Shown here in pieces: positions 2,741 through 30,775 of a stretch of DNA of 64,000 bases. Source of the DNA: Hydrolagus affinis (Eukaryota); assembly GCA_012026655.1 (NCBI GenBank), contig JAAILG010001203.1:1-64000 (forward strand), written 5' to 3'. Made by a program: the position numbers and the translations under genes. Positions within the stretch are counted from its first letter, which is position 1, and each line of letters begins with the position of its first letter. The notes under the pieces are model-generated. The model searched no databases and was not told the origin of the DNA. It was given only the letters and a program-made list of their open reading frames with translations.

Positions 2741-2923
<183 letters not shown>

Positions 2924-5467: not shown

Positions 5468-5825
5468 AAATCAGATATGTCAATATATTTTGGTACAATT
5501 CACGTCATCATGACATGAACGAAAGTGGAAGTAATGCTCTTCAAGAGCAGATACCTTGAGTGAATCAATGAGTAGAAACCAGCACTGTTGTTATTTTCAG
5601 TTCCTATATTCAAAACTTTGCCAAAAGCTTTGTTGTGAAAATTAATAAGTGCAGATGTGTCCTCAGTTATCAAAAATGTGTACCTTGTAAGCTTAAGATG
5701 ACTTTTTCCTCACCAAAGATTTGAATTATGTATTTCTCTGTATGATGAAATATTATTATTGAGTTTAAAACCCATTTTAGGGTTTGTGTGTTGAACACAT
5801 CGAATGGGTCTTGTAAAATGATAAG

Positions 5826-6200
5826 GACAACAAGAGCTTGCATTTATATAGTGCCCCTCATGTAGGGTAGCGTTCCAAAGTGGCAGAGTACCACGCCGAA
5901 CTAAGGGAAGGGGGGAGGTGTCTGTAGGCACAGTCAAAGAGGAAGGTCGTCAGGTGTGATCCAAAATTGGGTAAAGAAGGGGCAAGGCAGAGGGATAGAG
6001 GAATAGTGTTTCAGAGCATAGTGGCTCAATGGAGAGCACAAGAGACGTGCATAAGGCTGGAGCCAGCCGAGCACAGACAGTGGATAATGGGTTGGAGAGT
6101 ACCGGTAAGCTGCTTGGAGCAGTAAGAGAGGTGCTAGGACATGAAGGGATTTGAAAACAAGTGTGAGGATCTTGAAATAGATCAATTTGGCGATAGGGAG
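5826..6200 (-). mobile_element. Old L2 LINE 3' fragment
   Basis: Minus-strand IYFKILTLVFKSLH.LAP motif plus degenerate L2 tail. Confidence 0.75.
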
Positions 6201-8067
6201 CAGGTATAGCTTGGCGAGAAGTGGTAGAGTGACACCAGAACAGGCCATTCAACTCAACTAGTCCATACCAGAACAGACAGGATACTGGTTTAACATTATA
6301 ATGTTTGACAAGTCCCGAATGTCAAAACACCATTCAACCAAGGCTTCCTTTCTGGACTGTTTTTATGTACTGTAGTTAGGTCCACGTTTTATGCAAAATT
6401 GCATTACTGTAGCTCGTATGCCTGGAGCAATCTCAAGACAGCATCTGTTTACTATTCAAATGAAGGATAATGAGAGAAATGCATAAACATTCTGTTCACG
6501 TTCTCCCCAAATGTCACTCGGGGTCTAGAAAGCAAGACACCTGCTATCAATGCTTGCTCTCCTCAGTATAATTTCCTTCATGTTGTTTATCATTCTCTGC
6601 CTACCGAATCATGAGCCTTCTCATTATAGAAGGGGCCCATTGGTGCCACTATGTCTGTACTGGTGCTTGCTCCGTCACTGAAGTTATCCACTCTGTCCCT
6701 TTCCTTTATAATATTATTTTCCTTCACATATTGCAAATCAGTGGAATACTGTAGTTCGATTCGATTCTGTCAGAACCATTCCTCATTTTGAAAACTTTTA
6801 TTCAAATGTTCTTCAATGTTTTAGCCCCAAATCTGTATTTAATTTTATGTGCTGCAAATAACACCACATGTATCCAGGCAACTTTGATAAAATAGATATA
6901 AGATTTGCTCCTATAACATATTCAACACATGAGCTGACAAATCCACAGCAAACTTTACTTTAAGTAATGTGAGGAGACAAAACATCTTTTCCAGGAACAT
7001 CACCTAGCACAGACATAATAAACTGTTAACAATACTCCCTTGGCAGCTTTACAGAGCTGTCACCAAGTTATTGTGCACACTGATTCATCTTCATCACATT
7101 GACCGACTGTCTGTCACATGGGAAACTCTTCATGGCTTGTCTAAACTGTTGGATGTAGTTTCAATTGCAGCATGTAGTTTCATATCCTGAGCTCCATCAT
7201 TCATCAGGAACTAACTGAAAAAGATCCATGCCACAAATACATAATGCAAAATAACATTTCTATAGCACCTTTCACTGGACAGTCGGCAATTTGGACCCAA
7301 GCTTGGGGATTGCGATCAGGGAGACTGGAGAACCGGGAAGGTAGGATGGTGGTTGAAGATACAGTCGAAGAGAAGGGTCTTGAGACATGCCTTGAATGAG
7401 GCAAGATACATCATATGGGGGTTGAAGAAGTGCTCTTCGAGAAAACAGGAATGTTACTCAATTTAGCCTCGCTACCTGAAAACGTGTCTCATGATGTACG
7501 CTGTATCTCCAGAATGTAGACCACACTGATCCGCACAGGCATCTTCAGCTCTGAAGTGATGGCATGATGTACATAGGTGTCTTGCTGAAGATGCAGTTTA
7601 CTGTGCCACAAAGTACTTTTTTTGTCTGGCAACAACAACAATTTGCACTTATATAGAGTCTGTTGCGCATTGTCTCAATGTATCAAGGCACCAGCAATGC
7701 TAAAATTCTTTCCTGCGGAGGACTGTTTTAACTTCAGTGGAAAATGTTTCAGAACATTAGCATCTATAATGAAACGCTTGGGGATATTTTGTCATAGTAA
7801 CTGGTAATTTCTCACTGAACACACAGAATCGAGAGCCTTCTGAACAGTACGTTATCTAAATTAGGGGAGCCAAGCGTTTATCTAAAAAAAAGGAAAGGTT
7901 TGCAGTATAACAATCTTGATAGTCAATAAGAAGAGAAATATAAAAAACGAGTCTTAATTGCTACCGTTTTACTGAACCAAAGTGAATACATTGTTTAAAG
8001 ACCACATGTACCCTATCTGACCTTTTTCTTATTTCTGTTTAGCCGCATCCATCAGCATTAAACGTAG

Positions 8068-8304
<237 letters not shown>

Positions 8305-9933
8305 TAAGTACTGGCTTTAATTATCTGGGCATGTAATTTCACTGTTATGACTAATAGAAACTGAGAAAAACGAGTGCCTGATTTGAAGCTGCAATCTAAA
8401 TCGTACAGGGCAATGTGAGTGAGGGGATTGCACCTTGCTGCTGACAGGACAAGCAGAGTTTGAGCACAAGCCTCACTCCAAGCGATTGGAGGCAATGTAG
8501 AGTAATGGAGAGCATTTGAGGGTGAAGGGGTAAGTTTGAGAAAGTCGCAGCATAAACCTACTCTCCACTGCTGGTGGTAATCTTATTTGGTATAACAAAT
8601 ATTATATTTGTTATACCAAATAAGGTATAACAAGATGGGCTGGAGTGACAGGCACCAGATACTCAATACACAACCATGAGAGGTGATCTTAGCAAATCCA
8701 ACAAGGACACATAAGAGATTGAGTGACAGACAGTTGTGGAATTGTGGCTTGAAGCTCTGGGAAGCAGGTTGGTTTCTGAATGCCATAAGAGTTAAACTAG
8801 TGCTTGTAATACTGAGAATGTTTATAGCAATGCTATTTTTCAAATGTACATTCTTGCTTTAAGTATTAGAGTTGGTAAATGGTGCAAATTATTTTTCTTA
8901 AAAATATTACTCCCATCTTCCAAAATGGACAGTGAAAACTGGAAGCAAGAAGCATAAAGGTAAGGACTATGTTTCAATTTAAAATTAGGTAGTAGCAAAA
9001 GATTAGATAAATAGAAAATAAGTAGGACAGGGGAAAAAATAAAGGCTGACATTAAAATGTGTGAATAGAAGGAAAAGAGTAATGGCAAGACCAGAACAAA
9101 CAACTGTTTAATATTAATGTTTATTTAAATTATGATTTTGAATTTATTTTAGAGAATTAGTGGAACATTTACAGGACACATCTACTCCAGTAATTGAAGA
9201 GCTGTATTAGTGTAATGTTCATACTGTATTTTTTGGTGATGGTATGTGAGCTGAAAACAGAACCATTCAGGCTTATAGAGCCAGCAGTGCATGGGGTTAA
9301 TGACTGATCATCAAGATGGATTGAGAATTGGTTGGCAACATAAAGCAGGAGGACCATGTTGCAAGATAAAAGCTCTGACTGGAAGCAGGGTACCAATGGA
9401 GTTTCACAGAGAATTAATCTGTGCCTTTTGGTGATCATTATATTCAAAAAACAATATGGAAATGGAAGCTATCAGCAGTAGCTTTGCACTAGTGTTATTT
9501 GCAGGTATTGCCCCCATCACTGAGAGGATAGTTTGGAGATGTTCTCCTGGACAGCGTGATGGATGTCTCATACACATCCTGTTCCCCTCTCTCATCTCTT
9601 CATGCATACATATATAATTCTTTCTATTTACTGTGGACAGCTAGGAGATGATTGCTGCACCATTACGGAAATAAATTATATCTGGTCTGGATTTAGACTA
9701 TTTCTTAGCATTTCAGAATGTCCAATTTTTTAACAATTCTTAAATTCAATTTTAATTTGGAACCTGTTCTTCTGCAGTTATTAATCTTACCTACAATTGA
9801 TTAAGGTTGGGTTTAAAAATTGTTCAAAAATTTGCCAGCTCTGAAATGTTAAGAATGTGTCTAAATGTGCCAAATATAGACGTAGTTGGAATCTATACCT
9901 ATATAAAATTGATGTAAATGATATGTTGCATAG

Positions 9934-10113
<180 letters not shown>

Positions 10114-10980
10114 TGATTCACAATATCTGAGTTCAGAGTAATCATTCTCAATTACAATTTAACACTACTGAATGAGAGTATCAAAAATCTCCAATCTCTC
10201 TTCAAATGAACCAGCATTATTATTATTGTTGTTATTGTTGTTACATTGACATTTGAGCTGATAAAATTAATGACATAAAACAACAACCATATCTTGATGG
10301 AGTATGAAAGACAGGTTATGAATGGTTTTAACATTCATGCTTAAACATCCAATTTAATCATTAATCCCTTAACATTCCTGGCTGATTGCCTAATCTTTTA
10401 CCTGATCCATAATTTTCTGAGATCTTACTGCTCTTAATTTAGATATTTTTTATATGTGATTTCTGATACAGTGTATTCCTCATCTAAGCTGTGGGGTCGA
10501 TTGAGACAATTTAAATTTGCGATATTCTGTAAAGCATTCCTAAACTTCTTTAGCAATGCTTTAAATAAAGCAGCAGGTGGCAACCTTTTACAAGTACAGG
10601 TAGTTTATTTCTCAGAGTTCTAGTGCTAAGATTTTGTTCGAACTACATTACGTTTATATTTTATGTTTAATTTTGCTTTCCCAGGAGTGATCTGTATGAG
10701 AAGAGGTTAAATGCCATACTATTTTTGATTAGTATTATTGACTTTTTAGTAATCAGATCAGAGACTTCCAAATTAAGTGTGACTTTAGAAATTCTCCAAT
10801 TTGCTTTTTAAAACTGGTGGCTTTAAGGCTAAAACTATGAGACATTTAAATCACTTGAATTATATACAAAAGAGAAGTTTGTAAATATAGCCACTAATTG
10901 GGTAAGGAGCTCTCACAGCTGAGATGCAATACACAAATTTCAAATACTGTACAAACAAATTGTATTGTAGAGTACCTGAT

Positions 10981-11350
10981 TGTGGAGTTCTGTAGCTCAG
11001 CGGTAGAGCCCTCGCCTTACAAGCGAGAGACCTAGGTTCGATTCCCTGCATGTCAGGTCAGGGCGAAACCTTGGGCAAGGAGCCTTGCTCCACACGCCTA
11101 ATAATAATCCCTCCAGAAATAACAATAGTAAATTAGTCGTTTCAATTAGTCACTGCTGTGCGCAATTGGTTGCCGCGTTTCACCCACAAATATGAATACA
11201 CAAATTTCAAATACAAACAAATTGTGTTGTAGAGTACCTGATTGTGGAGTCCTGTAGCTCAATTCACTTTCCAGTATATTCTGTGAATCGCTTTGAGAAG
11301 ACCAGAAGACTTAAAAAGCACTATATCAAGTGCAAAGATTATTATTATTA
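10981..11350 (+). mobile_element. tRNA-derived Deu-domain SINE containing an internal copy of its own 5' flank
   Basis: A/B boxes, Deu core and tail present; 11195-11261 duplicates 10928-10999. Confidence 0.88.
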
Positions 11351-11463
11351 TAAATGTATTTATACAGTGCTTTTCATGTAGGGCAGTGGTTCCCAACCTT
11401 TTTTTGCTGCGACCCTAAATTGGCCACCGACAGGTCTTCCCGACCCTTGGGGGCAACTGCGTG

Positions 11464-11811
11464 ACAACAACAACAACAACAAATTACATTTATAGAGCGC
11501 CTTTCACGTTGGGAGGACGTCCCAAGGCGCTGCACAGGNNNNNNNNNNNNNNNNNNNNNNNNNNNNNNNNNNNNNNNNNNNNNNNNNNNNNNNNNNNNNN
11601 NNNNNNNNNNNNNNNNNNNNNNNNNNNNNNNNNNNNNNTGGGAGGGGAGTGTTTGGGCGGGGGTGAAACACGAAGGGGAGGTTGAAAAATTCGGGGTGGA
11701 ACAAAAGGCACGGTCGAAGAGGAAAGTCTTCAAACCGGTCTTGAAAGAGGAAAGGGAAGAAACGAGACGAAGGGATTGGGGGATAGAATTCCATAGGGTG
11801 GGAGCGGAGCG
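11464..11811 (-). mobile_element. Young L2 LINE 3' end nested in the hAT MITE (spans assembly gap)
   Basis: (CAA)n tail, stem-loop tail, and the ORF2 end SAPTLWNSIPQSLRLVSSLSSFKTGLKTFLF on the minus strand. Confidence 0.88.
11539..11638. other. Assembly gap (100 N)
   Basis: Run of N. Confidence 1.
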
Positions 11812-12579
11812 GTGACTGTAGCGAAGCTCAGCCAAGACGATATCTCCTTCTCTTTTGTGGACTCAGTGCAACTCGTTAGTACGGTCTTTCATACAAATTG
11901 GTTGGCGGTGTTGCCTCGGGCACTTTTCAGCATTAAAAATAAAAATTTCTGATGACCCTTCGCGACCCTGATTTGGGTCGGGAGCTGAGATTGGGAAACA
12001 CTGATAGGGAGAATGTCCCAATGTGCCTAGCTTTGTAAATCAATCAAGTTTCACTTTCTGGGCTTATAACACAGGTGATTCTTTTGACTGTATTAAAACT
12101 TTATTGTGCTTTGCAAACCAGTTAGGTTTCCTATCAAGATATTGATTACCTATTCTTCTGATTAGCACTATAATTCACCAATTATTAGCCAAATCTCTGT
12201 GATATAATTCAAAGCATTGTCACATGCAAAAGTGTCTTTATCAATACTGTTGCTTGACTAACAAGATCTATCTCCTCTCTTTCATTTCTGTGCAGATTCG
12301 CATGCTGTTACAGTAACCATGTAATTGGTTTCAATTTAGTTTCAAACTAAATTTTCTGTTTTAATTGATCCTTAAGGAGCAAAATAAGTTTAACATTTAG
12401 CTTAATTTTGTTTTATTCAGCATCTTGGGACATCGTCCAGACGTGAAAGGCGCTATACAAATGTAATTTTGTTGTTGTTGTTGTTGTTGTTGCACTTCTG
12501 GGTTTTTTAATGATCATTGTTCTGGAGCTTTTTTGTTAATTTCCTTCTCAAATTTTCTCTCCCCTTCTCAAAAGCTGCT

Positions 12580-13200
12580 TCCGCAACTACCTCAACCCCA
12601 AAGTTGCTGAAATCCTCATCCATGACTTCATTACTTCCTGGCTTGACTATTCAAATGCCCTGCTTGTCAGCCTTCCCAATTCCTCTCTCCACAGGTTGCA
12701 GATGATCCAGAACTCTGCAGCCCATGACCTCTACCGTTCCAAACTCTGTGACCCCATCTCCCCATCCTTGCCCGACTTCATTGGTTTCCCATCACCTAGA
12801 GGATCCAATTCAAGATCCTGGTCCTCACATTCAAAGCCCTCCACAATCTCGCCCCACCCTACATCCGTGATCTTCCAACACGTGCTCGCCCCCTCCGCTC
12901 AGCAGGCTGTGGCCTGCTCAATATCCCCCGACCCATCTGCCCCACCAATGGTGGGCAAGCCTTTAGCCACTCTACCCCCAACCTCTGGAACTCCATCCCG
13001 CAGACCCTCTGCCTCACCACCTCCCTAGCCTCCATCAGGTCCCGCCTCAAGACTCTCCTTTTCGATGGTCCCATCGCCAACTCCTATTCCCCCACTTCCC
13101 TCCCCATTCCCAGCTCAGGTGTGACACAGTGACTGTCTAGCACCTTGGGACATCCTCCTAACATGAAAGGCGCTATACAATTTTAATTTTGTTGTTGTTG
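12580..13200 (+). mobile_element. L2 LINE 3' fragment
   Basis: Degenerate LDYSN / LQMIQNSAA / PTLWNS motifs and L2 tail with (TTG)n. Confidence 0.88.
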
Positions 13201-13353
13201 TTCAGTGCCTTGGGATGTCTTCTCCACATGAAAGGTGCAATACAAATGTAATTTGTTGTTGACTAACAATGGGTACAGTATTATGGTTTTATTCCACTAT
13301 CCAAAATGAGCCTAAACAATGGGATGTCTCTTAAAATAATTGTTAAAACATTG

Positions 13354-13551
13354 TCAAAAACAGAAATCGCTGGGAACACTCAGCAGGTCAAGCAGCATCT
13401 ATAGAGAAAGGAAAAGTGAGTCATCGTTTTGGGTCCATGACCCTTCGTCAGAACACTTTCCTTTCTCCATGGATGCTGCCTGACCTGCTGAGTGTTCCCA
13501 GCAATTTCTGTTTTTGTTTCAGATTTCTAGCACCTGCAGTATTTGGCATTT
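13354..13551. mobile_element. Short palindromic Penelope-like-element derivative with hammerhead-ribozyme-like core
   Basis: ~63-bp inverted arms (13355-13418 / 13454-13516). The loop on the - strand reads CTGACGA-A-GGGTC-ATG-GACCC-AAAAC. Flanked by TTGTTAAAACA(T/G)TG direct repeats at 13340-13353 and 13552-13565. Confidence 0.7.
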
Positions 13552-13872
13552 TTGTTAAAACAGTGATTTCTGCATACAGTATCATCTTTACAATGGGGTT
13601 CCAAAGTTGTGTGGAAAAGACTTATTTTTAACAAGCAGCACAAAATACACATGATTGAATGTCAAATGAGATGGGCATCACAGCTGAGATATATCTTATC
13701 CTTATCTGAAATCCACCCGGATACATTTTCCTAAATTGAATGATAACAGGAACAGAATGCCCAGTTGATATTTCTCTCTCCAGAACACAAACTGTAAAGC
13801 CAATTCTATCATCTGGGCTGCTGTCTTTACTGAGATCAGCTAATTCAAACAATCCAATTTAGGGACTTGTAT

Positions 13873-14294
<422 letters not shown>

Positions 14295-15256
14295 TAGGCA
14301 ACGGTTGAAAATATTTTGGTGGGGTGGGCGCTGAGTAAAGCTCGGGTACGTATTACGTTATAATATATGTTATGTTATATTTTCTTTGCAAATCTGATTG
14401 GGGGAAAATGTTATGGTACACTTAATCATTGTGTAAGAAATAACATATTTGAAACTGAAAGAAACCCACAAAAAAGAGTCATTGACTACTCCTCTTGACA
14501 GATCAAGTACTGTACTATCATTTACTAAATGATTTTGTCTGGTGATAATATCCATTGCAAAGTGAAACTGTCAGCATTTAATTACGGCCAAAGGAAGGGA
14601 ATAGAATAAACAAGGGTGGGCTGATAGCAGTACCAAGCTGTACTTGTGTATTTACCAGTCTTTGTTGTCAGGAGTGATTAATAGTTATTACACCACCAAT
14701 TTGTAAAAGAAAAGTACATGTTCTTGGAAATGACCAAATTCCTGTCTGTAGTGATTTACAACAATTCTGGGAGGAGAGAAAGGAAATCAATAACAATTTC
14801 ATTTATTCCAATAAACCAGGATGCATTTACTGATTAGACAGACCCCAAATCCCACCTGACCTCAGCCTGCAGTTCAGAAACTCTTTTATTTTGCAATTCT
14901 TAAAACAAAGACCAAATTAAGACTTGAGATTAAGAATTTTCTACAGTTCGGTGCTATCTTATATTTTAAGGCAAAAATAGTCTCATTGGTTCAAACTAGA
15001 TGAAGTTTCTATTCTCCAGGACAGATGCTGTTCATTATTGTAACAGGTTGGTCGCAGTTATGATCTCGAGGTCAGAAGTTAAATGGAAGATCATTTAAAT
15101 ATTTGTGAAAAATATAAGTGAGCACGTTTACTGCCAGTGGAAATCTTTTACTGGCTACTGAGAGGAGGGTTTGGGTCAGTGTTTCTGTTAGGTTGGTATA
15201 CTGACTGGTAAACCTGGCTTCTGGAGCTAAATATTGCTTTGGCTTTTTATAAACAG

Positions 15257-15334
15257 AATTGATCTACAAGGAGGTGATGGATTTTGAGGAGAAAACTAAA
15301 AATGGTGTTGTGAAGGGACAGCCGTCTCCGTCAG
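15257..15334 (+). CDS. MAPK10: MAPK10 exon (E)[25 protein letters not shown](G/A)
   Basis: 78 nt, aaacag/GTAAAT boundaries; [16 protein letters not shown] matches JNK3. Confidence 0.97.
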
Positions 15335-16221
15335 GTAAATCCAGTGATCCTGTACATAGATAATAAACTAACATTGCTTGCGGTATTACTGCTGGACAAA
15401 CAAATTCAATCTCCTTGCTTTCTTGGTTAATCTTAATGACAAAACAACAACAAAATAGAGCACCTTTCACGTCAAGAGGCCAGCTTAAGTATGTTACAAA
15501 AACAGATATCTCTTGATAAGGTTTCCAGAGAAATGTCAGTTTCACCAAAGATTTCAGCCTTTTCTGTTATGATTGCAAGTAAAAAAATTATTTCCTTTCC
15601 GATTATCATTGCAAAATTCATAAATCTTTGTTCATTTACTCTGAATCTAACTAATTGTGAACTATTCTTGCAGAAAATGTTCTGCTTGTCCAGTGCAATA
15701 CTATCTCACAAACATACCTCTACAATCGGTTTAAAATGTGGCTCTAAACTGAGGTACTTGTTGCATAAAATACATAATCATAATATAAAATACATAATAT
15801 AAAATACATAATCATTACGCTTTACAGTAAAATCTGTGAACCGCTTTTAGGCATGCTGTGAATTGAAAGTTGACATCAAATGCATGGGGTATTATTATTA
15901 ATGTGTTGAATTTGTTACATTCTGTTTACTGAAGAGAAAATAATACAATAAGGGATATTCAGGCTTGCCTTCATATATTATAGTTTTTAATGTTAATCAT
16001 AAACATTACAATCTGGTAATAGTAAAATCCTTATTTATAAGGCATATTGCGATTTTGATCAATATTTTATCTTTAGTTTAAAACAAAAAAATGCCCCAAA
16101 TTGCTAACTAGTCGAAAAAGGTATTGGGGTTGAAAAAATAACACCCAGTGGAAAATGTTTTAAAAGGTAAAACACAATTATACATCAGGACATAAAATGT
16201 ATCTCATGCACGGTACCTTAT

Positions 16222-16650
16222 ACTCAAGATCCTCATCCTCACTTTCAAGGTCATTTACGGCCTTGCTCCGCCTATCTCTCTGACCTGCTGTCTCCCTATC
16301 AGCCTACCCGTCCCCTTCGTTCAGCGGGCTCTGGCCTGCTCCACATCCCCCACCTGAACTACCCTACCATCGGCGGCTGGGCTTTCAGCCTCTCTGCCCC
16401 CACACTCTGGAACTCCATCCAGCAATCCCTTCGCCTCGCTTCCTCCCTTTCCTGCTTCAAGACTGGTCTCAAGACCTTCCTCTTCGACCGTGGCTTCTGC
16501 TCCCCTCCTAACTCTCCCCCCTCTCCTACTCTCCTTCCCCCTATCCTGACCCCTCCCCCCCATTGCTCGGGTCCCGACCTAACTGTTCAGCACCTTGGGA
16601 CGTCCTCCCGACGTGAAAGGCGCTCTATAAATGTCATTTTGTTGTTGTTG
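16222..16650 (+). mobile_element. Young L2 LINE 3' fragment
   Basis: KILILTFK / SAPTLWNS motifs, pyrimidine-rich 3' UTR, stem-loop tail and (TTG)n. Confidence 0.9.
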
Positions 16651-17790
16651 TGTACAACCTGCTAATGTTTGGAAGCTTAGTTTCTACCTTGAAGTAGACT
16701 TGTAGCCGAAATGCACAGATTGGTGAGATGTATGTGGAAATTCCCTAGAATAGTAGCATTTTATGTCCCAATGGCCACTTTCCAGATGTGAGATTTCATT
16801 CCTCTGTAGTTTTCCTGCTGAGTACAATGCTTATCAGCCCCTATGTCGCAAAAGCAACCTCAGAATATTTGGGCATTGTTGTGGGAGGGGAGTGGGTGGT
16901 GAATTTAAAGCAGTGTATGGTTTTAGAATGGCAGTGATTTACCTCCTGTTCCTGAACCAGTCAGCATGATAAATTACAACAGAACAGGAGTAAAATGCAA
17001 GCCTTGCAGAAATGAAAATTTTTCACAACTGAAGCAAATTAATACTCTTATTTTTGCTCTTTAGAAACTTTTTTTTTTGACACTTAACATTTACCCATTC
17101 CTTTCCCTGGTGCAGAACTTACTTTGTTCCCAATTAAATGAGCTTGTAGTCAGCAATCATGAATAAAATGATTGGTAACCTAACATCTGTCTTCTTAGTG
17201 CAAGACTCTAATAACATGAGGCAAGTTTGCAGAGTTCCATATCTTCAAGGTGCATAGATTTATTAAAATTGTTGCATCAAATAAGCTTCCTGGAAAATGT
17301 GCTTTACTCTGTATGACTATTTAGAATTTTTTTTTAAATGATTAATGTTTCAATCATTCTCTGGAACCATTTTTCAGAACCAAGATTTATAACAGTGTCA
17401 GCTCCTTATTTTCTCCCAAATGATGGAGGATACAGGAAGGATATAAGAATGTTTGAGTGATACCCAGACCTTCCCCCACCCTCCCCCCCCTGCCCACCCA
17501 TTTAAGCCCCAACAAAATATTTAATCATGTAGAGGTGTCTTGCCTAGTTGGCTCCCCTGCAAATCAGCACCTCCTACAAATCAGCACCCCATTGTACCTG
17601 AAAATCCCAAGCTCTTTAGGGGCGCCAGTCCACCACCAATGATGGCGACGCTCGTTTTCTCCTTATCGAGAGAATGTTTGGGGCAATCAAGCGACTTCCT
17701 TTCTGTTGCCTTTGCTGCTGTTTGCGGTCGATTTGAAGGTAAGGCTTTTTCCTGGCTCAGATTTTATGGCTTTACTGTTCATTTTCTCAG

Positions 17791-17807
17791 CGCAGGTGCA
17801 GCAGTGA
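17791..17807 (+). CDS. MAPK10: MAPK10 last exon, short (p46-type) frame: (A)QVQQ*
   Basis: Proximal acceptor ttctcag at 17790; G|CG CAG GTG CAG CAG TGA, the canonical JNK short C-terminus. Confidence 0.88.
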
Positions 17808-17938
17808 ATAGCAGCGAAAGCCTTCCTCCATCCTCATCAGTAAATGACATTTCATCCATGTCAACCGATCAGACCCTGGCCTCAGACACTGACAGCAGCC
17901 TGGAAACTTCAGCAGGACCCCTCGGTTGTTGCAGGTGA
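17796..17938 (+). CDS. MAPK10: MAPK10 last exon, long (p54-type) frame: (G)[46 protein letters not shown]
   Basis: Distal acceptor cgcag at 17795; the C-terminus is near-identical to human JNK3 alpha2; adjacency to ARHGAP24 supports MAPK10 rather than MAPK8/9. Confidence 0.96.
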
Positions 17939-17980
17939 CTAGCCGCCTGCCTGCGGAACCCCCTCTTCTTTAGAACGTGA
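17936..17980 (+). other. MAPK10: Stop-codon readthrough signal UGA-CUAG and 14-codon extension X-LAACLRNPLFFRT*
   Basis: TGA CTA GCC GCC TGC CTG CGG AAC CCC CTC TTC TTT AGA ACG TGA. Human MAPK10 is an established UGA-CUAG readthrough gene with a similar extension. Confidence 0.88.
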
Positions 17981-20900
17981 TGCACCTACTAATTACTCAG
18001 CTCGCCTGTTTGGAAAATGAACTTCTCTTTAAAAAGGAACATGGATATACTTGATGCTCAATATTATGTCAGAATGCTTTGCTTATGTCTCATTTCCGAT
18101 GAGGCTGAAGTTCATTAAGAGTACTAGGCAGCACCACTTCACAGTATGTAAATATGTGGTTATAAATTTGCGCCCTGCTCCCTATGGCACTTGCTTTGAT
18201 AAGGCAAGGTGAGCAGAAAAAATACAGCATTATAGTTAAAACTAAATGCACTTTTGTCTCTTTAAAGATGCAATATGTGTCCATTTTTTGCCCTTCATGT
18301 ACTTGCTGAGTATAAACACATTGTATAAATATATTCATATGAATGGCCATATGTTCATTATTCCAAAAAGATCTTCAATCCCGGGATCTCAAAACCCATG
18401 CATTCTTGATAGAGATTAAGGGAATAATGATGTAAATAAATTGTTAATCCTTTTAGCACTGAATGCAACCCTTCTATCAGCAATTAAATTCCATAAATAG
18501 AATTAATGGGATACGCAGAACTACAAACCACTCCCTTATAAGCTATGAAGTAGACTAAATAAAGGGTAATGTTTAATAGGACATAAACCTTTCTAGCTGT
18601 CCTGTTTAGGTTATAGTCACAGTCTTCAAAATATCCTGAAAAAAATTGTGTTACAATCGCAGTTTTCATAAAAACTGTGATTTCTCTCAACTAACTTGAC
18701 ACTGAAAGGTGGTGTTTAAAATCTGGTTTGCTAATGCCATTTCCTGAACTAAATATAAAGCAATGATGACAAAATAAATGATGACAAAGTATCCATAAAG
18801 AGGATTATATGTTTTTACTCACTGGTTTAAATGCTTCTGCAGATGCTGGTGATAGCTCTTTAAACTGGAGTGAGCATCACACATTCAGTTAGCATTTGTG
18901 ATCTGAGTTGAAAGATCCTGGAATTAGTGTTCATACCGGAATTTGTAGTCAAATAAAAAAGACATACACATACAAATTAACTGCACACCTTGCCATAGTC
19001 AGCTGAACAGATTCTTTAGTTGCACTTGCCTGTAGATGTGCATGATCAAACTTCCAAATATATAACTGTAAAGTGGAAGGGAACATATACCTAGGTGTGT
19101 TGTAGGTTATTATGTGGTACATAATGTATGCAGCCAAGAACCTGCACAATTTTGCTGAAATTTTAAAACCCGTAAATGCTGAACCTGCATGGACCTGTGA
19201 TACGACTGCTCTGCTCACAAGTAAGCATTATTTTGAATTGCTGTGACATATGTTAATCAGAACCAATTTTATTAACGTTGCGTGTGAAATTGATACATAA
19301 GCTTAACTGCTGGATGCGGAATATTAGAGACCAACCTTCAGGACATCAGTGATGTGGACAGTATAGAAAACCACCTCAGTCTATACAATTGCAGGGAGTT
19401 TACCTTGGAAACTGTACTTTTACTGAGAGGAAAGATTGACGTTACTAATAAGGCCGAAAGCACAAAGGACAAAACTGTCAACATTGACAGCTTCAATCAG
19501 CTTCGGTCTGAATATAACTAACTTTGCAGAAGTCCTCTTTAGACAAAATGAATATTTCTTCAATGAAGATTGATAATGACTGGATAACAGGGTATCTAGA
19601 ACTTGGGACATCTTGATGAAATATTACAAAATCAAACTTAATTAATATTAGGTTTGGGAATACTCCATTCACTAATGTTAAATGGTTCTAAATTATCAAA
19701 GTACAATACAAATACAGAACAGCACAGCACAGAAAGAACTGGTGGTATTCTTGCTGACTTAGAAAATCAAAAAGTCATAAGATCATAAACAAAGAGAATA
19801 CCCAATCCTCCATCTTCCCATTATGGACTACAGCTGTTTCTTCAATGACTCCAGTATCCTTGGCCTCAACCACTCATTCTAGTACCCCATTCTATTCCTT
19901 TATTCCCTGTTGTTTAAAAAATACTTAACCCATTGGGTGTACTAAAAAAAAATAACATGTCACACCTCTGTCCTCTTGTTTGTGCTTGCTTTGAGTATAA
20001 GGAAGTATTATTATGAGTTTACTTTTTCAATCCTATCAAGCATGGTATGTGCTTGTAGACCACCTGGCCTGAGTTATTTCGTTTCAAGGCTGAAGAATCT
20101 TTTCAGGCCTGTCTAGTCATTTCTCTGAGTCCATCTCTCTAATGCTGGGACACAGCATGACATTAAAGAAAATACCTATTCTAAAATGAAACAACATCCT
20201 CTTCCTCTGCCCCTAATACACCAAGGGCAGATGAAATGTTTGAAGGATGAGTTTGAAGAGTGAGCCCATAAATCTTAGCAACTGTCTGGAATTTGACAAA
20301 TAAGCCATTGCTATTGACTATCATCTGTTTAACTGCAATCTCTCTACAAACAAGTGATGATAAATTTATGGAAAATATAATTTTAATTATAATGAAGTAC
20401 TGTATTTAGTACAAAATATCAGCCTACAAAACACTTACAAGTTTCTAGGCTTGGTATTTTCTGTTAATTTATCATATATAGCTTAATTTGAAGTGTAGAT
20501 ATTTTTCAGATTTGTGATGAGGCTGCCTGAAAATTTAATGCTATTGCCCTCTGCTGATCAGATTGTAGAGGCTCTGCTAGGTTAGAAATGCTAAGTTTGA
20601 TCCAGTTAGAATGAACTGTTCTTTTTTCACTGCTATTCAGTCGTCCTTGCGTTTGGTTTTATGAACAGATTTCTGATATCATTAACAGACTGATTGGGAT
20701 TCATTGTGTTTGTTTTTGTTAAATAGTTTGCATTGATCAGGTATATAGCTTCAACCTTTCTCCAGACCATTCTACAAAATGATGTTAGTGCAATCTGAAT
20801 TGGCCCTCACTGACATGATGATGTCAGGCACTCTATCAATGAATAGTGTCTCGGATTTTACCTTGCCCATCATTTTAATGATATTCAATTCTAAGCAATT

Positions 20901-23900
20901 GTTTTAAGCTATAGTATATGTTGTGTTGTGATGCAGCGGGACATCTTGGTCCTAAGTATGAGTGGTGCCTCATTGTGTGGCTCCCCGAAGGTTCAAAGTA
21001 CTGTCCAGGCTGGACCACCCCATCTTCTTTCCCACTCTTCACAGGATATCAGCACAGCCTCTGTGCAGTGCATTCCCACAGTGTGACTCCTATTGTAATC
21101 TGAATGGATTGGAGAGATTGAGCTGCATGTTTCCACTGACTCTCAGTGCTCCAACATGCATGGTCAACAAAGTTTCATTTAAATAATTATATAATTAAAT
21201 AATTGTGGAGGCTTTAACTCAATGCCAGTGATCGGTCTAAGCAATGATATCCGTGAGCGAGTTTTGATGCTACTACAGGTGGGAAAACTTGTCATCTCGA
21301 TACTGGTCATTGGTTCATAATGGCTGCTGGGCTGGAAGATCATGCACTGCTGTTCCTCTTAACAACAACAACCTGCATTCATATAGCTCTTCTCACTGAG
21401 TTAGTGTCCTAAAGAACTTGATGCACCATCAAAGGAGATACATAAAATAATAGTGTGATCGACCATTTTGATCAACCAGACTGTGTTTATTCTCCACATG
21501 CGGTCCCACTGCACGTATATCTCTCTTCTATCCCCTTCTGTTCCCTAAGCCTTGTATGCATCAAACTTTCTCTCAAGTATGCTGATGTTATTTGCGTCAA
21601 CCACAACATCTTCCCATGCGTTCCATAAATACTGCAAAGTAACTAAAACAGCAACTACAGAAGCCATGACAACCGAAAAGAGGCAAAATTTGTGATAATT
21701 GATCACAGATTCTATGTGATATTTATCACATTTAATTGGTTATGATTTATGCAAATCCTACCCCTACCCCCTACCAATTTCTCATCTTAAACCAATATTT
21801 CATCTCTTTCTTGGAACTTGCTTTTTACCTTCTCTAATATTTGGTGAGTCTCTGCCAAAAATAAACTTGAGTGCTATCTTATGATCCTGATTAGAAAAAT
21901 TACATATCGGTGTGAAAATTGTTGGGTGTATTATGTTGCATCATCGTTGTAGCACTATCAAAGTATCCTGCTGTACTATTGAACTGATCTAATCCAATCT
22001 ACCATCCAATTTCAGCATTCATTGGTATTGAGGAAACACTTATATTTTGCTGTAATTGTGCGATTTCTTTAACTCTTATTCTTATGTGTAAGTGCGTGTC
22101 CAGAAGGTCCACAGTACCCAATGAAACCCAGACCATGATTTTGTTGTGAAGGAAAATTATCCTGCCTGTGCTGTGCCTCCTACTCCATATGCTCAGTGGT
22201 ATAATGCAAACAATAAAACCCTCAAGCTGTTCTGAACAGTTTGTTTTTCCAGTAAGCAATGCAATTTCAATTGATATTGAAATAATGACTGACCAAATGT
22301 TTGCATCCAATGAAGAGCCAGAAATTAGCCATTATAATAATGTGCCAACACTCACAATGTGTGTGCCATACTGCAGTTATTCTCCAAAATATGTATTCAG
22401 TTTATTCCTAATCTATATCATCTTATTGGTGTAGACACCCACTCAAATAATCACTGCAGTCACAGTGCCTAAGAGTAAGCATTCCCCTTTCCACTCTAAT
22501 ATTGCCAGATTGGACTGAACAACTAGGAACAGTGCTGAAATCAAGGCTTGTCTCCAGCTGGGCATTTAGCACCAAGCTCTCGCTGAAGTGGGCGCTGTTC
22601 ACCTGACGGGCTCAGTTAATAAACAGACAACTGGAATTCAAATGCTCCCATTTTTGCAACCTGGTGGAGGTTAATTGAAGGAACTTCATAATTTGCTAGA
22701 TTTATTAATCATTGTGCTCCAGATGATCACAGTTTAACTGATACAGTCGAAAAGCAAGAGCATAGGTACAGATAAGATGATGAATGTCAATTTCAGTGCT
22801 TTAAAAAGACTTCTGGTCTTTTCTGTTGGGCTGAATGTTCACATGAGTATGCCTCAAGTAACGGACTATTAAGTCCATAACACTTCAGAAGGAAAGGGTT
22901 GAATTCAGCAATCCAGAAACTCTATAAGCAGAGGATATCCCAGTATAACATAGTGAAAGATGTGCTCTGGGGAGTTGTATTTATTTTCCAGCATAATATA
23001 ACTACATATAACTAAAGAATGATGTTGCAGCTACTCTTAACTCCTCGTCTTATTGCTAATGGCTTGTCTTTTAATATCGCTGGCATGACAAGATGTAAAT
23101 GGACAATTCTTTTCTGATTTTCCTGCAAAGGTACTTGCAAAACTGTTCACCCGCAAAGTTTCATGCAGACTGCATGGGTGAAGTTAGTTCCAGGTCATGA
23201 CTGTAGGTACAGAACATTTGTAGGATAGTTTCAAACATCACGTCTACATTTACAAGGTTGACGTTTTAAAATTTTAAAAAATAAATAATCACGCTCTGCA
23301 TGAATCCTGTCTGACTCTTCTCTCAAAAAGTCTATTAACTAAATGCCTCCTATGAATTTCATGGCACAAGTCTATTTAGAGTATGCAGAATATTTCTCTT
23401 TCTCAAGGTGTGTGAAGCATTATCTGGTTGTACTAACAATGCGAGGGGATTACTGTAAAGTTTCCAGAAGTTGTCAAGAGATTGTCAAACATTTTTATAA
23501 TGATCATCTTAAGCAGAATGTACGTCTCTTCCTCTCATACGGATATGGATTTTTATTTTGGAATTGTCGGGGCGGGCATATGATAAATTAATGTGGATTT
23601 TCAATGGTTCAAAGCCCCTGAATTTAAATGGTTTAAAGAGCCATAGCAATATCAAAGTGTTTCAGTTTTCTTCAGAGAAATCACGAGCCCCATCTTGAAT
23701 GTTAATGGGTGTTTGGGAGAGAGAGGGGGAGAGGAATGGCACTCCTGGTTTGCCCTGGAGAAAACTTATGAGGTGCGTTTGTAAGCAGTCACAATGGCAG
23801 AGGGCAACTAGCTGGGTTGCAGGAAAGAAAGAGATGGAAGAGAGTTTGAAACAAAAGGAGAGGGATTGGCGAACAAAGGACTAGGAGAGGAGTTGGAGGT

Positions 23901-24637
23901 GGGTGGGAGAGGGGATGGAGGGTGGAGAATCAAACTACCGAAATAAAAAGGGAAATTACCAAAGCCAGATAATGCCTTTCTAAGTGCTTTATCATTATTT
24001 GATTAACTGACCACAAAAATATTAGTTAACAAGATAGGTTGTTTAAATAAAAATTGATGACGTGGAAAACAGTGCAGTGAATCTCCCAATGCATTACCAT
24101 ACATATAGTCAAGGGGAATAGACAAGTCATAATTGGACTCAAGAGTACATGTACTCTTTGAATACATATTCTTGTCTTTCTGACCCTGATCGGGTTTCCA
24201 AACAGATTTTGCTTTGGGGAAGAGAATTTTGTAAAAAAAATTATAAATTCATTTAAAAAAATCTTGTATTCAGACTTCTCTAAACCATTTGTCAGTCTAG
24301 CTCAGAATGTGTTCATATGTCCAGATACTTTCACTTAATGGCGGTGCAATAAGATTTAATTCGGAGACCGCACCATCGAGCTGGGGTCAGCTGCAATCAC
24401 AACTGATATCTAATGTGATTTCTTTGTGGCAAGTTTGATTTTAAACAAACTTGGTTGGTTGTTTTTTTTGTACTGTTTGTGACCAATTTTGTTAAGATGT
24501 AAGGATTAGATATGCATCCGATCCCTACACCAGTGCTTTGTAAGATAAGCTTCTCAAGGCCCAGCTCCCAGGAAAGCACCTCAACTTTTAAAAATTGAGA
24601 TTTAACAAAAAAAAATCACTCAAGATTTTAAAGTTAC

Positions 24638-24775
24638 TGTGTATGTAGACAATATATGTATGTGATTAAGAAAAATAAAAGACCTTCAAAATGGGAAATA
24701 ATTTCTCAGTTGTGAAATGATTGATCATTTACATGGCATGTTGTCATCTGTGAAACGCATGACTGTTTTGTGAAT
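24638..24775 (+). terminator. MAPK10: Candidate distal poly(A) site of MAPK10
   Basis: AATAAA at 24674-24679, three TGTA motifs within ~40 nt upstream and TG/T-rich sequence downstream. More proximal AATAAA hexamers lie at 18435, 18773 and 18952. Confidence 0.5.
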
Positions 24776-24896
24776 TGCATCCATATCTTGGACCCGAGAT
24801 GAGGTGCTGGATTGATTTAGCTACTGATCATGTTAACAAGAAGGATGTACAGATCACAAGTTTACTTTGCCACTCAAAAGCAATGATGGGGCTTAA

Positions 24897-27800
24897 GGTA
24901 CTCGGGGTTAGTGTCAAATTTCAAAGAATATCATTATAAAAAAAATTCTTTTTATTTCTTATGTTTTAGGCAAGGATTTTGACAAAGTTTCTCGTGCATA
25001 GTATTACACCACTTTGTGTAATTTGCATATAATAAGAATAAAAGGAAAACTTGTTTCTCATTCTCATCAGAAACTGGAAAGAGCTTTCACTCTCATTTTC
25101 ACACATTATCATCCACACATAAGTCTCTTTGAAATGAGTGGTTTAGATTTTTTTCTTAAATATCAGTTTCAAGAGATAAATGGCAATTATTAATTTTTTT
25201 AATCCACCTAATTAAATATTCATGACTCATTTTCTCAATTAATAAACAACATTTTGCAAATCTAAACAATTAATTTCATAGCTTTACCTTTATTAAACAT
25301 CTGTGCAAAAAATCATTGCATTACATCACTCCATTCTGAAGTTATGACAATAAAGCTGATTACATTCATTCAAAAATCACTTTGAGAAAAACAAAGGAAA
25401 ACATAACCTTTTGTTTTAACATCATGCATTCACATTCTTGTTCAAATACATGTATTTTCAATATCTTTACAAACTAAGAAATAGCACAAATTATATCATT
25501 TTGATTTCATTGATTTGATGATTTATTTGTCTATCATATTTGTGAACAATTTAAACAGCAAGTATACAAATAATTCATTATTTGTATAGTTATTTATATA
25601 ACAAAAATTAGATAATGTGGTAACACATGACAAAGGCAAGCGGTGATGATGTGAAAGTCCCATAATTTCATTACATATATACACATAACAATATTCATAG
25701 GCAATATATACATAGAAAATACAACAATATATACATGTAAACAAATATTTATATTGAATAGATAAATTAAATAATTTTATTAAATGAATTGATTGATTAA
25801 TTAATTAATATGCTCCTGCTTCATATGATGTCCCTTTGCGCTCAGCGATTTGTTTTCCTCCCATTCCTTTCTCAAACGTTCATTCTTTTTCTTTTCAACC
25901 TCACATACATCCCTTTCTGCTTCCCTTATCCTTTTTATGTCTTCCCTATGTGAAGCAAGAGTGGTATATTGAACAACATGTAGGCTTAGAGATGAAAATA
26001 ATCTGTGGCGACTTTGCTCCGCACCAGTGTTGAACATCGAAGCAGCAAGATTGACTGCAATGCGGACAACATCTGGTCCTCTCCACTGGGACGTGGTACA
26101 CCTTTTTCAAATGAGAGAATTGAAACTCATTTTGATTTTGGGTGTACCCAGGGAGACATCTCTCAAGGAGTTTAGGATCACTCAGTCGCATGAATGTCGG
26201 CAAAAGAAGGTCTAGAAATACCTCATCTAGGTGGTAGCTCTTATCCTTCATTAGCTGCCTGTCCTTTTTGTATTTACAAAAGGTGTCAGGTGTGTCGGTG
26301 CAGTACTGGTGCCGGATCTCATCAGGTACTTTGCAGTTGTGATACATCACTGCCAATATCGCCCTCCTCATTTTCTCTACAGCCTGTTTTCTTGCTTCAG
26401 TATCTTTTACTGCTGCTCTGTCCCGCATTTCTGTACAAAGTACTCAGCTTCCCTACCATCCCAGTTTCCCCTGGTGTGAGCCTCCCAGCGCCCCTCCCGA
26501 CATACTTACCATCACTCAACTTTCCTGGTGTCCTGCTCTTCAATGATTCTAATCCCTTCCTCATTCTCTTCCCTATGTGCCCTATACAATCTAGCTTTTC
26601 CACTAAGTCCCCACCCACCACCCCTTATGCATTCTTCACTGTCTCATACGCCTTGCTGTCTCCATCACTTAGCATGTATTTGTATCATAGTTTATGTTTT
26701 TCAATAGACCTTTCCCACAATTTGTTTGCTGAGGCAGCTTCCATCCCCCCACTAGTCCCCTCATAATTAATCTTACATTTGTCCTTATGCCCAGCCCACC
26801 AATCCCTGTACTTTGTACTATCCCAGTCCCTCCTATGCCCAACATCCCCACAATACTTGCTCATAACTTCCCGATCTAAAACTTCCCCAGTATCAACCGA
26901 CAATACAACCCCCACCCCAGTCAAAGATATGAATCCCCTTTTGTGCCAAGCGCCATCGAATGAGACTGCCACATCAATCATCGAATCCTTTGTCACCGTT
27001 GGGTCCTCGTCTATCATCTGTTCCCACAGTTTTCCTGCTGCCTCTGCCATTTTGTGTTTCAAGTGCCTATAAAGACAGAAAAACACAAAGAGAGAGATAG
27101 AAAATAATGTTGTAATGACAAATAATTTGAAACAAATCATTGTATGACTATAAAAATGCATAATTACAAGGAAAACTAATGTAATAAGACTCACTCCTTC
27201 AGATTTTTCCTTGAAGCAACCATACGCAGCTGAAAAGCTGGATCGCTGATGGGTGGCGCAGTTCCAAGGATCGTCATATAATCCGCCATTCCTTGTCTGC
27301 CCAGGCCAATCTCCATTGCAGCGAGAACCAACCTCCTGTTTATGTTTGCACACTGGCCAGGTCCTGGTACATTTTTTGAGGTCCCTGAAGTGTTTGCCCA
27401 CCCACACTTGCTGCATATGAGGTGGATCTGGCTGCAAAGGCCATCAGGCCTCTCATCTTGGATGGAAATATCTCCACCTTTGTTTAAAAAAAGAGAGAAA
27501 AAAAGAAAAAATCATGAAACTATATATAACATGTACACTGCCCAATTTATTTTATCATCTACATTTAATATTTCATCAATGTGAAAAATCTACATTGGCT
27601 AATATCTCCCAATGTTTGATCACGGGCTGACACAGTGCCTACATCGATATACATTATTTAACCTTCCATAAATTTCAAGCACGTAGGATCTAACTTGAAT
27701 TACACGTTTCATTTCTGAGACATATGCACATTTGATAAAATGGGAAGAATTACAAGATATTGCCATTTCCAGTCCATGGCCAATGCAACAATCATGACAA

Positions 27801-28598
27801 GCTCTTGTAATTGCACGAAAATTTGCATGTCCGATATCAACAATCAAGAGCACATAAATGTTGCACACCAGGTCTATTATCAGAAAATTCATTCATCGTA
27901 TAGGTATTCTGATGGTAAAAAGCATAGAAACTCACCTTCTGCACAACTGTGAGCATCACTGATGATGTCAGTTAGCACACCTCTCTCTATAAGATATTTG
28001 GGTAATCCTGTCCCATCCTCCATGCACGAATTTGAAGGTGTGGGACTGCACTGAAGAACTGATGCCATTCCAAGTTTTCTTGCGCTTGGCGTAAGTTCTG
28101 GTGTTTTGGGGGGTGTCAACATTTTCTCCTTGCTGTCTTTTTAGAACATGGTATTGAACACCAGCAAACCCCTTCCTCACCTTCCTACCTGGATTTCTGT
28201 ACGAATTTCGGCCCATGGTTATTGAATATTACAGATGTAAAACAAAGAAGCAGATTATAGCAAAGTTTGCAATGACAGGAAATGGCCTATAGATGGAAGC
28301 ATATATCAGAGTACTCAACTAGGTTGTACCTTTCATTAAAAAAATCAAGAAAAAATATTTAAAAATAGTGATTTTATGACTTTTTTGACAAATGCTCCTT
28401 GCAAAATTAGAACTCGGTTTCAAGGTCATGATATGTAAATTGACTGAGTTTTTTTTTAATTTTAATGACTTTCTGAATTGATTTTTCACTTGAAACTTCA
28501 GCAAAATGTTGAGAACACATCAAAGTGTTGTCATCAAACACATTTTAAACAAAAAACTGAAAAATTATTTTTCACTCAAAATTTGGGTCTGGAGTACC
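24897..28598 (-). mobile_element. Full-length Kolobok-type DNA transposon (3.7 kb), decayed
   Basis: TTAA at 24893-24896 and 28599-28602; termini GGTACTC...GAGTACC with an internal CAAATTT/AAATTTG match; internal DDE transposase gene. Confidence 0.85.
25805..28216 (-). pseudogene. Three-exon DDE transposase pseudogene (exons 28216-27936, 27477-27195, 27066-25805)
   Basis: Both introns are GTGAG..AG with compatible phases. Motifs: RKGFAGVQY, SARKL, LICSKC, INRRLV, VSFDGAWHKRG, CKINYEGTSGGME, SDGDS, LDCIGHIGKRM, GRLT, HQYC, CLPGYTQNQNE, terminal GTSYEAGAY*. At least 3 in-frame stops (26685, 26625, ~26108) and about 4 frameshifts. Confidence 0.88.
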
Positions 28599-28715
28599 TT
28601 AAGCCCAAATTTACCTTAGTACCTTAAGCCCCCCCCTTGAGGGAGGGGGAAGTAAGCTGGGTCTCCTTGGAACTGAATTGGCTCCAAGGTGATAAGTTTG
28701 GCAACAGGATGTACG

Positions 28716-29035
28716 AATAATCCTTGCATTTGATATAGCGCTTTTCACATCTTATCAACGTCCCAAAGCGCTTCACAGAATACACTGTAAACTGAATTGA
28801 CTGTATATTTGTGGGCGAATCGCAGCAGCCAATTGCGCACAGCAGTGTCCCACAAACAGTCGATGATTGAAATGACCAATTTATTATTGTGGTTTTTTTG
28901 GAGGGATTATTATTAGGCGTGTGGAGTAAGGAAACTTGCCCAAGGTTTCGCCCTGACCTGCCTGGTTTTGGACACAGGTCTCACCAGCTTGGTCTCCCCA
29001 GCTTGCAATACAAGTGCTCTCACCCTAAGCCACAG
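28716..29035 (-). mobile_element. Full-length tRNA-derived Deu-domain SINE
   Basis: Reverse complement of the 5142-5467 family. Confidence 0.88.
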
Positions 29036-29076
29036 AAGCTTAAGTATTGACCCCACCCTTTGTGGTGGTCTCGGTT

Positions 29077-29352
29077 ATAATAGTAAATCTTTGTGTTGAT
29101 ATAGCACTTATCATGTCTTCAAGACGTCTCAAAGCACTTCACAGAATATACTGGAAAGTGAAAAGACAGTATATTTTGTGGGTGAAATGCAGCAGACAAT
29201 TGCACCCAGTATTTCCCATAAACAATTGTGGATTTAGTGATAACAGTATTATGATCATTCTTTATTTTAAAAGATTATTGAGATTATTAACCCTGATCCG
29301 CCAATCGATTAACAACTGGGTTCCGATTTACTGCATATGGAGTAAGGAAATC
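29077..29352 (-). mobile_element. Older Deu-SINE copy
   Basis: Degenerate tail and Deu core on the minus strand. Confidence 0.7.
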
Positions 29353-30531
29353 TGCATAATGTTGCTGTCTGGGAGAATCTGCCTGGGAAGCCAACCCAAA
29401 TCCTCAATACACACTAGACTCTACAGATAGTCCAATTCCATTGGCTTCCCATCCCCAGTGAATCAAATTCACAATTCTCATCCTCACGTTCAAATGCCTC
29501 CGTTGCCTCAACTCTCCTTATTGTGACCCCACAGCCCCTGGCTGCTGTCTCCATTCAGCATGCATAGGCCAGTTTTGTCTTCCTGCCACCCTCTGAAACT
29601 CCATCATAGGGTTCCACCATCTCTCTCTTCATACCAAAGCTCCCTTTAAGACCAATCCCTTCAACCAAAGGTTTCAGCCAACTTCCTCTCCCATACCACC
29701 AAATTTCAGCCCCCCCCCACCCCTCTCATCGCCTCCCAACTCATGCTCCCAGTGAGATGCTTGAAAGAATTGGGATGTTCTCCCAATATGAAAGATGATA
29801 TACAAGTGTGAATTGCAGTTGGGTGTATTCTGCTGAGAATGACAATACGACATTATGGAACAAAGCAACACACCAACAAGAAGGTTTAGGTAATCCATCT
29901 GTTATTTTTTTTTATATATAAAATATGTACACTTTTTTTGGTCATGAACAAGTAAAATGGTAAAGCAAGTAAAGCGGAATCACACAAGTCAATATTTGAT
30001 CTTTAGAATCCCTCTTCCCAATAGCCTCTGTACCTCTCAGGATTCTCTCATCCCCTACAAGAAGAAGGGATGGGATGGGGGGGGGGGGGGGGGGCTTCAA
30101 AAAAAACATTGAATTACAAAAAAAAACAACCATACCACGATGCTAAAATAAAATAGCTTACATTAAGTGCAGGGTAAAAGCCTTGATAAAAAGCTTGATT
30201 GCAACACAACAATATTAATTTTTGCAGTTTAAATACAAGACTTTCATTGAAGTTTTCCTGTTTTGCTTTGAAATACATAGTCTTACAGGTGCCACTGATT
30301 TTGTTTTTAAGCTGTATACACAACCAGCTGTAACACTTAACAGTAATATAATTACACAGGAGCTTACAGGTTATAGTAACGTGGTAAGTACACAACTAAA
30401 ATACTGGCAACTCATGTTGAAATGTACTTTCTTTTCCTTCAAGGTGTTTAATGTTATTGAGTGCTATCTCCAGACAGGTGACCAGTCACCTGGTTTTGTA
30501 CTCTATAGCCACAGTCTCAATGCTTTGACCT

Positions 30532-30775
30532 TTATTGTATCCAGATGGTATTATTCCTCTCTGGTCTTCTTGGCTCCACAGTCAGGTCTCCAAATGTTGA
30601 GAAAAACTGCTCCATCTCCTTCTGTAACATTTCATTCCGTTTCTCTGCGTCCTCCCGGGCACGATCGGTGTTCCTCATTTTGATTTCCACCATAGTGTAC
30701 TTCTTCCTCTCCTGGTCCAGCTCCTCATGCAGCACCATCAATTCAGACTCCAGCTCTACGTTCTTCTGCTCCACA
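30532..30775 (-). CDS. ARHGAP24: ARHGAP24 last coding exon (coiled coil / filamin-binding C-terminus) (S)[12 protein letters not shown]...[24 protein letters not shown]
   Basis: Acceptor gttatcag; the C-terminus ...NTIWIQ matches human ARHGAP24. Confidence 0.96.

Follow-up and report, generated by a model that had tools for sequence, protein, structure and literature searches.

A UGA-CUAG stop-codon readthrough context at the p54 stop of MAPK10 (JNK3) in the chimaera Hydrolagus affinis

The window considered here, which is the whole 64,000-nucleotide stretch of Hydrolagus affinis DNA that was analysed (GenBank assembly GCA_012026655.1, contig JAAILG010001203.1, positions 1 to 64,000 of the forward strand), contains exons of a gene that, judged by protein comparison, is the orthologue of MAPK10, which encodes JNK3. 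Five of these exons (Table 1; the last counted here to 17938, the end of its stop codon) have GT-AG-type boundaries, and their spliced product is identical at 196 of 196 residues to a UniRef JNK entry of Callorhinchus milii, A0A4W3HEB5. MAPK10 was the top PDB match for all four exons tested, with a small lead over MAPK8 in two of them, and in the case of the last exon PDB held no long MAPK8 tail to set against that of MAPK10. Named protein homologues among the matches listed were MAPK10 or unspecified JNK, at 81–98% identity. An earlier note made from the letters of this DNA had identified the gene as JNK3, and these comparisons bear that out.

Further upstream, a 72-nt exon resembling alternative exon 6b of the kinase domain precedes an intron (2886–8107, forward strand) whose donor, GTATCCTT, is of the U12 type and whose branch sequence, about 20 nt ahead of its acceptor, is U12-like, both recognized by the U12 donor and branch consensus. 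The U2/U12 arrangement at JNK exons 6a/6b has been described (PMC1874599), and the intron fits it. The partner of the 6b-like exon was not found within the window and probably lies upstream of it, and the C. milii entry contains neither of the alternative exons.

Tail-to-tail with MAPK10, on the reverse strand, lies a RhoGAP gene (30535–57786) with a C-terminal coiled coil, the stop codon of which is a TAA in an ordinary context. This neighbour is probably ARHGAP24, which lies beside MAPK10 in human as well; a paralogue search with its exons returned distant RhoGAPs only. Between the two gene ends is a broken Mutator-like transposase (25949–27511, reverse strand) that matches Pfam PF20700 in two frames (E 2e-19 and 5e-13), while its third piece (25949–26443, same strand) gave no Pfam match. 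Two intronic Rfam tRNA matches, at 10986–11056 on the forward strand (45.2 bits) and 53864–53935 on the reverse strand (49.8 bits), are probably the heads of tRNA-derived SINEs, and many degenerate LINE reverse-transcriptase-like fragments were seen by eye throughout the window. Two 100-N assembly gaps, 11539–11638 and 34226–34325, are both intronic and clear of the readthrough site. Downstream of the MAPK10 stop, four AATAAA hexamers on the forward strand, at 18435, 18558, 18773 and 18952 (0.5–1.0 kb 3′ of the stop; the next is at 21860), are candidate proximal poly(A) sites within 18435–18957.

Table 1. Features of the MAPK10 locus and its neighbour, in window coordinates
Feature	Position	Strand	Basis
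MAPK10 72-nt alternative kinase-domain exon (exon 6b-like), then U12-type donor	2814..2885	+	tblastn with named JNK3 proteins
MAPK10 coding exon, kinase C-lobe	8108..8290	+	PDB bits: MAPK10 118.8, MAPK8 112.9, MAPK9 93.9; splice sites
MAPK10 coding exon	9962..10086	+	PDB bits: MAPK10 74.4, MAPK9 69.7, MAPK8 69.4
MAPK10 coding exon	14103..14166	+	21/21 identical to A0A4W3HEB5; splice sites
MAPK10 penultimate coding exon	15257..15334	+	PDB bits: MAPK10 38.5, MAPK8 37.1, MAPK9 31.9
Upstream tandem acceptor, p46 frame, end AQVQQ, stop 17805–17807	17791..17807	+	in-silico splicing
Last coding exon, p54 frame, acceptor 17796, end GPLGCCR	17796..17935	+	46/48 identical to PDB 3tti MAPK10 C-terminus
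CCR palmitoylation motif; last two codons TGC-AGG	17927..17935	+	sequence; CCR palmitoylation known from mammals
Possible 7-bp stem, CUAG in loop (17931–37 with 17944–50)	17931..17950	+	folding against shuffles
5′ splice-donor-like site over stop context, cut after 17934	17932..17942	+	U1 matches 8/11 plus one GU
Putative UGA readthrough site, the first stop	17936..17938	+	sequence reading
CUAG core readthrough motif	17939..17942	+	sequence reading; motif definition from PMC4132726
13-codon extension LAACLRNPLFFRT	17939..17977	+	GRAVY 0.64, two Arg, one Cys
+5 to +15 readthrough-enhancing context, as in human wherever compared	17943..17953	+	oligonucleotide and mutation labels
Second in-frame stop, UGA	17978..17980	+	sequence reading
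RhoGAP exons	near 57553–57786, 41288–41512, 34710–35822, 30535–30801	−	domain and protein searches

The last coding exon of MAPK10 opens with two acceptors 5 nt apart on the forward strand; use of the first (17791) gives the p46 form, and use of the second (17796) gives the p54 form, in which the TGA at 17936 is in frame. Only p54 mRNA is thereby placed in the frame that ends CCR-UGA. Because this stop closes the p54 frame and the p46 stop lacks a CUAG context, readthrough would be open to p54 transcripts only. The p46/p54 splicing of JNK3 is described in bioRxiv 10.1101/2020.11.17.387191, and a dual-frame region has been reported as ancient in MAPK8, MAPK9 and MAPK10.

Directly read on the forward strand, the p54 stop TGA is followed at once by CTAG, and thirteen sense codons separate it from a second TGA, an arrangement that the earlier note had given exactly. 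Readthrough would thus add 14 residues, namely the recoded UGA and the 13 codons. The TGACTAG motif alone is no evidence for this, as the 7-mer is not enriched in the window (four matches against 7.96 expected, with 95 of 100 shuffles reaching four). Its position and context do exceed chance: given the base composition around it, CTAG directly after a stop has a p of about 0.003, and the p for the next stop in frame to come after exactly 13 codons, estimated from 20,000 starts placed at random in the local 3′ UTR, is about 0.027.

The GC content of the extension (0.62) exceeds that of every one of 982 UTR windows taken from the following kilobase. By thirds, it is 0.77 and 0.69 in the two that make up the first 26 nt and 0.38 in the third, the 13 nt that lead up to the second stop, so that a clean GC step at the second stop was rejected; the richness sits in the signal part of the extension. 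The peptide is short and of low complexity. Its hydrophobicity is unexceptional, with 27% of 1,221 stop-free 13-codon UTR windows scoring as high, and an amphipathic helix was rejected on a helical moment of 0.10.

Readthrough of MAPK10 and its conservation across vertebrates are already known and have been in print since 2014. The gene was identified by PhyloCSF, on which it scored above 99.96% of UTR controls, and its extension was reported to be invariably 13 residues long and conserved to the mammal–lamprey ancestor (Loughran 2014, PMC4132726). Across 73 MAPK10 sequences in the same report, CUA always followed the stop and CUAG did so in 68, the codons UGC-AGG were invariant before it, and the eight nucleotides after CUAG showed conservation chiefly at the level of nucleotides. 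The chimaera extension has the same length of 13 codons, in agreement with the human length given in the earlier note, and that note's suggestion that the recoding predates the split of cartilaginous and bony fishes holds as well, having been superseded by the older date at the lamprey split.

The match to human extends well beyond the core motif. A human MAPK10 stop-context oligonucleotide (PMC12233894, supplement), compared by eye with 17926–17948, is identical at 23 of 23 nt, and nine of nine wild-type letters past CUA in the labels of a human deep-mutagenesis data set (+4, 5, 7, 8 and 11–15) likewise match the window; a single label in that preprint (bioRxiv 10.64898/2026.07.14.738498) reads 5G>T, whereas the oligonucleotide and three other labels have C at this position. 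Chimaera and human are therefore the same at 28 of 28 contiguous bases, from −10 to +15, which is as far as the human comparison extends. All 11 bases of the +5 to +15 context are included (+5 to +10 by the oligonucleotide, +11 to +15 by the mutation labels), and the last two sense codons of the chimaera, UGC-AGG, are those reported as invariant in vertebrates. The stretch confirmed as human (+1 to +15) encodes LAACL, which secures these five residues of the human beginning, LAACLRNP, that the earlier note had given. The feature is the chimaera orthologue of the published, mutationally mapped human MAPK10 readthrough site, and the note's description of the context as one of readthrough is upheld by its identity to a human context tested in reporters.

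How much readthrough such a context supports varies about tenfold among reporters. A fused dual-luciferase construct of human MAPK10 gave approximately 14%, an activity that was lost on deletion of CUAG (PMC4132726), and a four-gene group including MAPK10 gave 6–17% (PMC5868278). Other values for human MAPK10 are approximately 4–5% (PMC12233894) and, in a single-copy reporter, 1.2% and 1.76% (Toledano 2026, bioRxiv 10.64898/2026.07.14.738498). Fused reporters were found to overstate readthrough of OPRL1 (PMC5513072), and the best-controlled MAPK10 values are low, at 1–5%. In the deep-mutagenesis preprint, mutations at +5 to +12 cut readthrough strongly and effects reach +27, so that the signal spans nine of the thirteen extension codons, and PhyloP drops only past the second stop. 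UGA-CUAG is depleted at human stops, with 23 seen against 39 expected (PMC5868278), and its retention in MAPK10 therefore implies selection. In the 2014 report, full-length HA-MAPK10 was poorly expressed and TargetP gave no targeting motif in the extension (PMC4132726). Mapk10 is not named in the text or three supplementary files of a mouse-brain ribosome-profiling study of readthrough (PMC6392083), and no report of endogenous extended JNK3 or of its function was found in the literature searched, which lay mostly outside subscription journals.

With these data in hand, we consider it very likely that readthrough occurs at the MAPK10 p54 stop in this animal, and a small share of its JNK3 would probably gain the 14 extra residues. 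The UGA-CUAG core, together with the AGG codon in the P site and the bases at +5 to +15, would let a near-cognate tRNA outcompete the release factor, which in reporters of the human context loses in roughly 1–14% of events. In the neurons of this animal, a few percent of p54 terminations might accordingly be expected to read through, with Trp, Arg or Cys (or Ser) inserted, in line with the residues reported at UGA in mammals (Trp, Arg, Cys or Ser; PMC4973966).

No trace of the extension was seen among the named protein homologues listed. Among the best 120 of 260 matches, 109 were named homologues (the 11 others, which had no usable name, were set aside), and 92 of these end in CCR, 17 carry unrelated tails, and none carries the extension; the query coverage above 77% of some of them reflects spliced tails rather than readthrough. 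The omission from standard annotation, which the earlier note had anticipated, includes the C. milii entry. Curated human MAPK10 records probably include the readthrough extension. For the present genome, an annotation correction is in order, as its protein entry stops at CCR.

The bases around the stop might serve purposes other than readthrough, and their resemblance to a 5′ splice donor is the most tangible of these. TGC-AGG-TGA could be a cryptic donor for alternative last exons, or one masked by a hairpin, with the conserved bases serving splicing and readthrough incidental, a reading that we regard as improbable. The U1 duplex at 17934 (−8.1 kcal/mol, where four real donors range from −8.3 to −10.0) is about equal to that of the weakest real donor, and the 17 divergent homologues part from the others right after CC-R/S, five of them with Ser instead of Arg, which would place the junction inside the Arg codon. 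Moreover, conservation at the nucleotide level falls on the 3′ arm of the possible stem (+6 to +12). However, the 17 tails are unrelated to one another save for two close species pairs (two killifish and two seals), many are labelled “hypothetical” or come from ab initio models, and one, in a MAPK10 gene model of Albula, continues into the neighbouring RhoGAP exon in antisense. Also against a donor, the invariant C of CUA is a mismatch, and 26 of 828 GT sites in 2900–18500 bind U1 within 0.5 kcal/mol of this site or better. No credible homologous alternative last exon was found in 17981–30600 for any of the 15 tails whose length allowed a search. Masking by a hairpin was rejected, as the cost of opening the donor-like site (5.5–7.6) falls within that of real donors (0.8–8.1). 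The 7-bp stem across the stop is itself not significant against shuffles (z −1.63 over 37 nt and −0.08 over 68 nt), and it should not be able to persist once the stop occupies the A site; no stable stimulatory structure was found 3′ of the stop (z +0.88 for 17939–18040 and +1.19 for 17945–18010). A 7-bp stem is also short as a substrate for ADAR, which counts against A-to-I editing of the UGA, the A of which does lie at the edge of the small hairpin loop. Selenocysteine insertion would likewise start from a UGA, but no SECIS family match was obtained in the whole window at the gathering score or in 17700–26000 at E up to 5, and the Rfam search gave no other element at the stop. Human readthrough, for its part, needs a short local context only and depends on CUAG, and the same source notes the 7-nt pairing across the stop while RNAz gave no conserved structure (PMC4132726); recoding by selenocysteine or editing is thus exceedingly unlikely. 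We conclude that the donor-like context is mainly an annotation trap that misleads some gene models, with tails that are spurious or lineage-specific.

Two further alternatives concern what the readthrough signal does and what selection acts upon. The signal might be a conserved relic, or active in cultured mammalian cells only, with neuronal readthrough at background in this animal, as the tenfold differences among reporters and the failure to find in vivo detection in the literature searched would allow. We give this little credence, considering that all 28 compared positions and the length of the extension have been kept between chimaera and human and that UGA-CUAG is otherwise depleted at human stops. 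More weight belongs to the possibility, still a doubtful one in our estimation, that readthrough is real and that the RNA signal or the act of reading through is mainly what is selected, the peptide being largely a by-product or a short tag that destabilizes or diverts a few percent of JNK3. The +1 to +15 signal, the effects of which reach +27, takes in all of the identical codons for LAACL, and the identity of these residues therefore cannot part RNA from protein constraint. The primarily nucleotide-level conservation of the eight bases past CUAG and the concentration of GC in the first 26 nt point the same way, and a precedent for a destabilizing tag exists in the readthrough isoform of MTCH2, which has been reported as unstable. 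Against this stand a 13-codon length fixed across vertebrates, a coding-like PhyloCSF signal (both PMC4132726) and a PhyloP drop that comes only after the second stop (bioRxiv 10.64898/2026.07.14.738498). Fixed length and PhyloCSF favour a functional peptide, and the claim of the earlier note that the peptide is under selection is in this respect partly supported, while the chimaera sequence does not by itself show such selection. A natural variant that is identical to human near the stop could be useful in parting RNA-signal constraint from peptide constraint.

If the p54 stop is read through, as we think very likely, the extension would change the C-terminus of JNK3. In mammals, JNK3 is palmitoylated on the cysteines of its CCR end, a modification on which axonal vesicle targeting and retrograde injury signalling are reported to depend (bioRxiv 10.1101/2020.11.17.387191; PMC11417247), and the extension directly adjoins this motif. 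With the tail, the palmitoylated Cys-Cys pair would no longer stand at the free C-terminus but inside the chain, a third Cys would follow five residues on (and a fourth if UGA is decoded as Cys), and the new end would be hydrophobic and basic, with two Arg and a Leu-Phe-Phe. An effect on palmitoylation or on membrane or vesicle targeting is plausible and would be consistent with the known palmitoylation of CCR, and no paper on such an effect of JNK3 readthrough was found in the literature searched. The role that we tentatively favour, while considering it no better than possible, is that a small fraction of JNK3 would differ in its S-acylation or in its residence on vesicles. Arguing against such a role, the tail is moderately hydrophobic and not amphipathic, TargetP is blank, and few molecules would carry it. 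More speculative still is the idea that readthrough acts as a switch on the lipid anchor of JNK3, in which an internal cluster of three to four Cys would be S-acylated differently, altering residence on DLK/JIP3 axonal vesicles, and that this switch has been kept since before the split of sharks and bony fishes. Were it true, stop-codon recoding would be linked to retrograde injury signalling, and it is the function alone that would be new.

Compared with the known tandem splicing of JNK into p46 and p54 and the S-acylation of p54 JNK3, the chimaera gene has both the 5-nt tandem acceptor and the CCR end, and readthrough would add a third possible C-terminus, to the p54 form only. Compared with the readthrough described for MAPK10 of human and other vertebrates, it is the same gene with the same TGC-AGG-TGA-CTAG, the same 13-codon length and the same possible 7-nt pairing, so that the difference is one of species only, for bases compared from −10 to +15. 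AQP4, OPRK1, OPRL1, MDH1, LDHB and VDR share with MAPK10 the UGA-CUAG core and the near-cognate tRNA mechanism. The JNK3 tail ends in FRT, which is neither a PTS1-type nor a CaaX end. In contrast, LDHBx and MDH1x have been shown to be targeted to peroxisomes (PMC4973966), and AQP4x has a demonstrated function in its perivascular location (PMC6392083), whereas the role of the JNK3 tail is a proposal.
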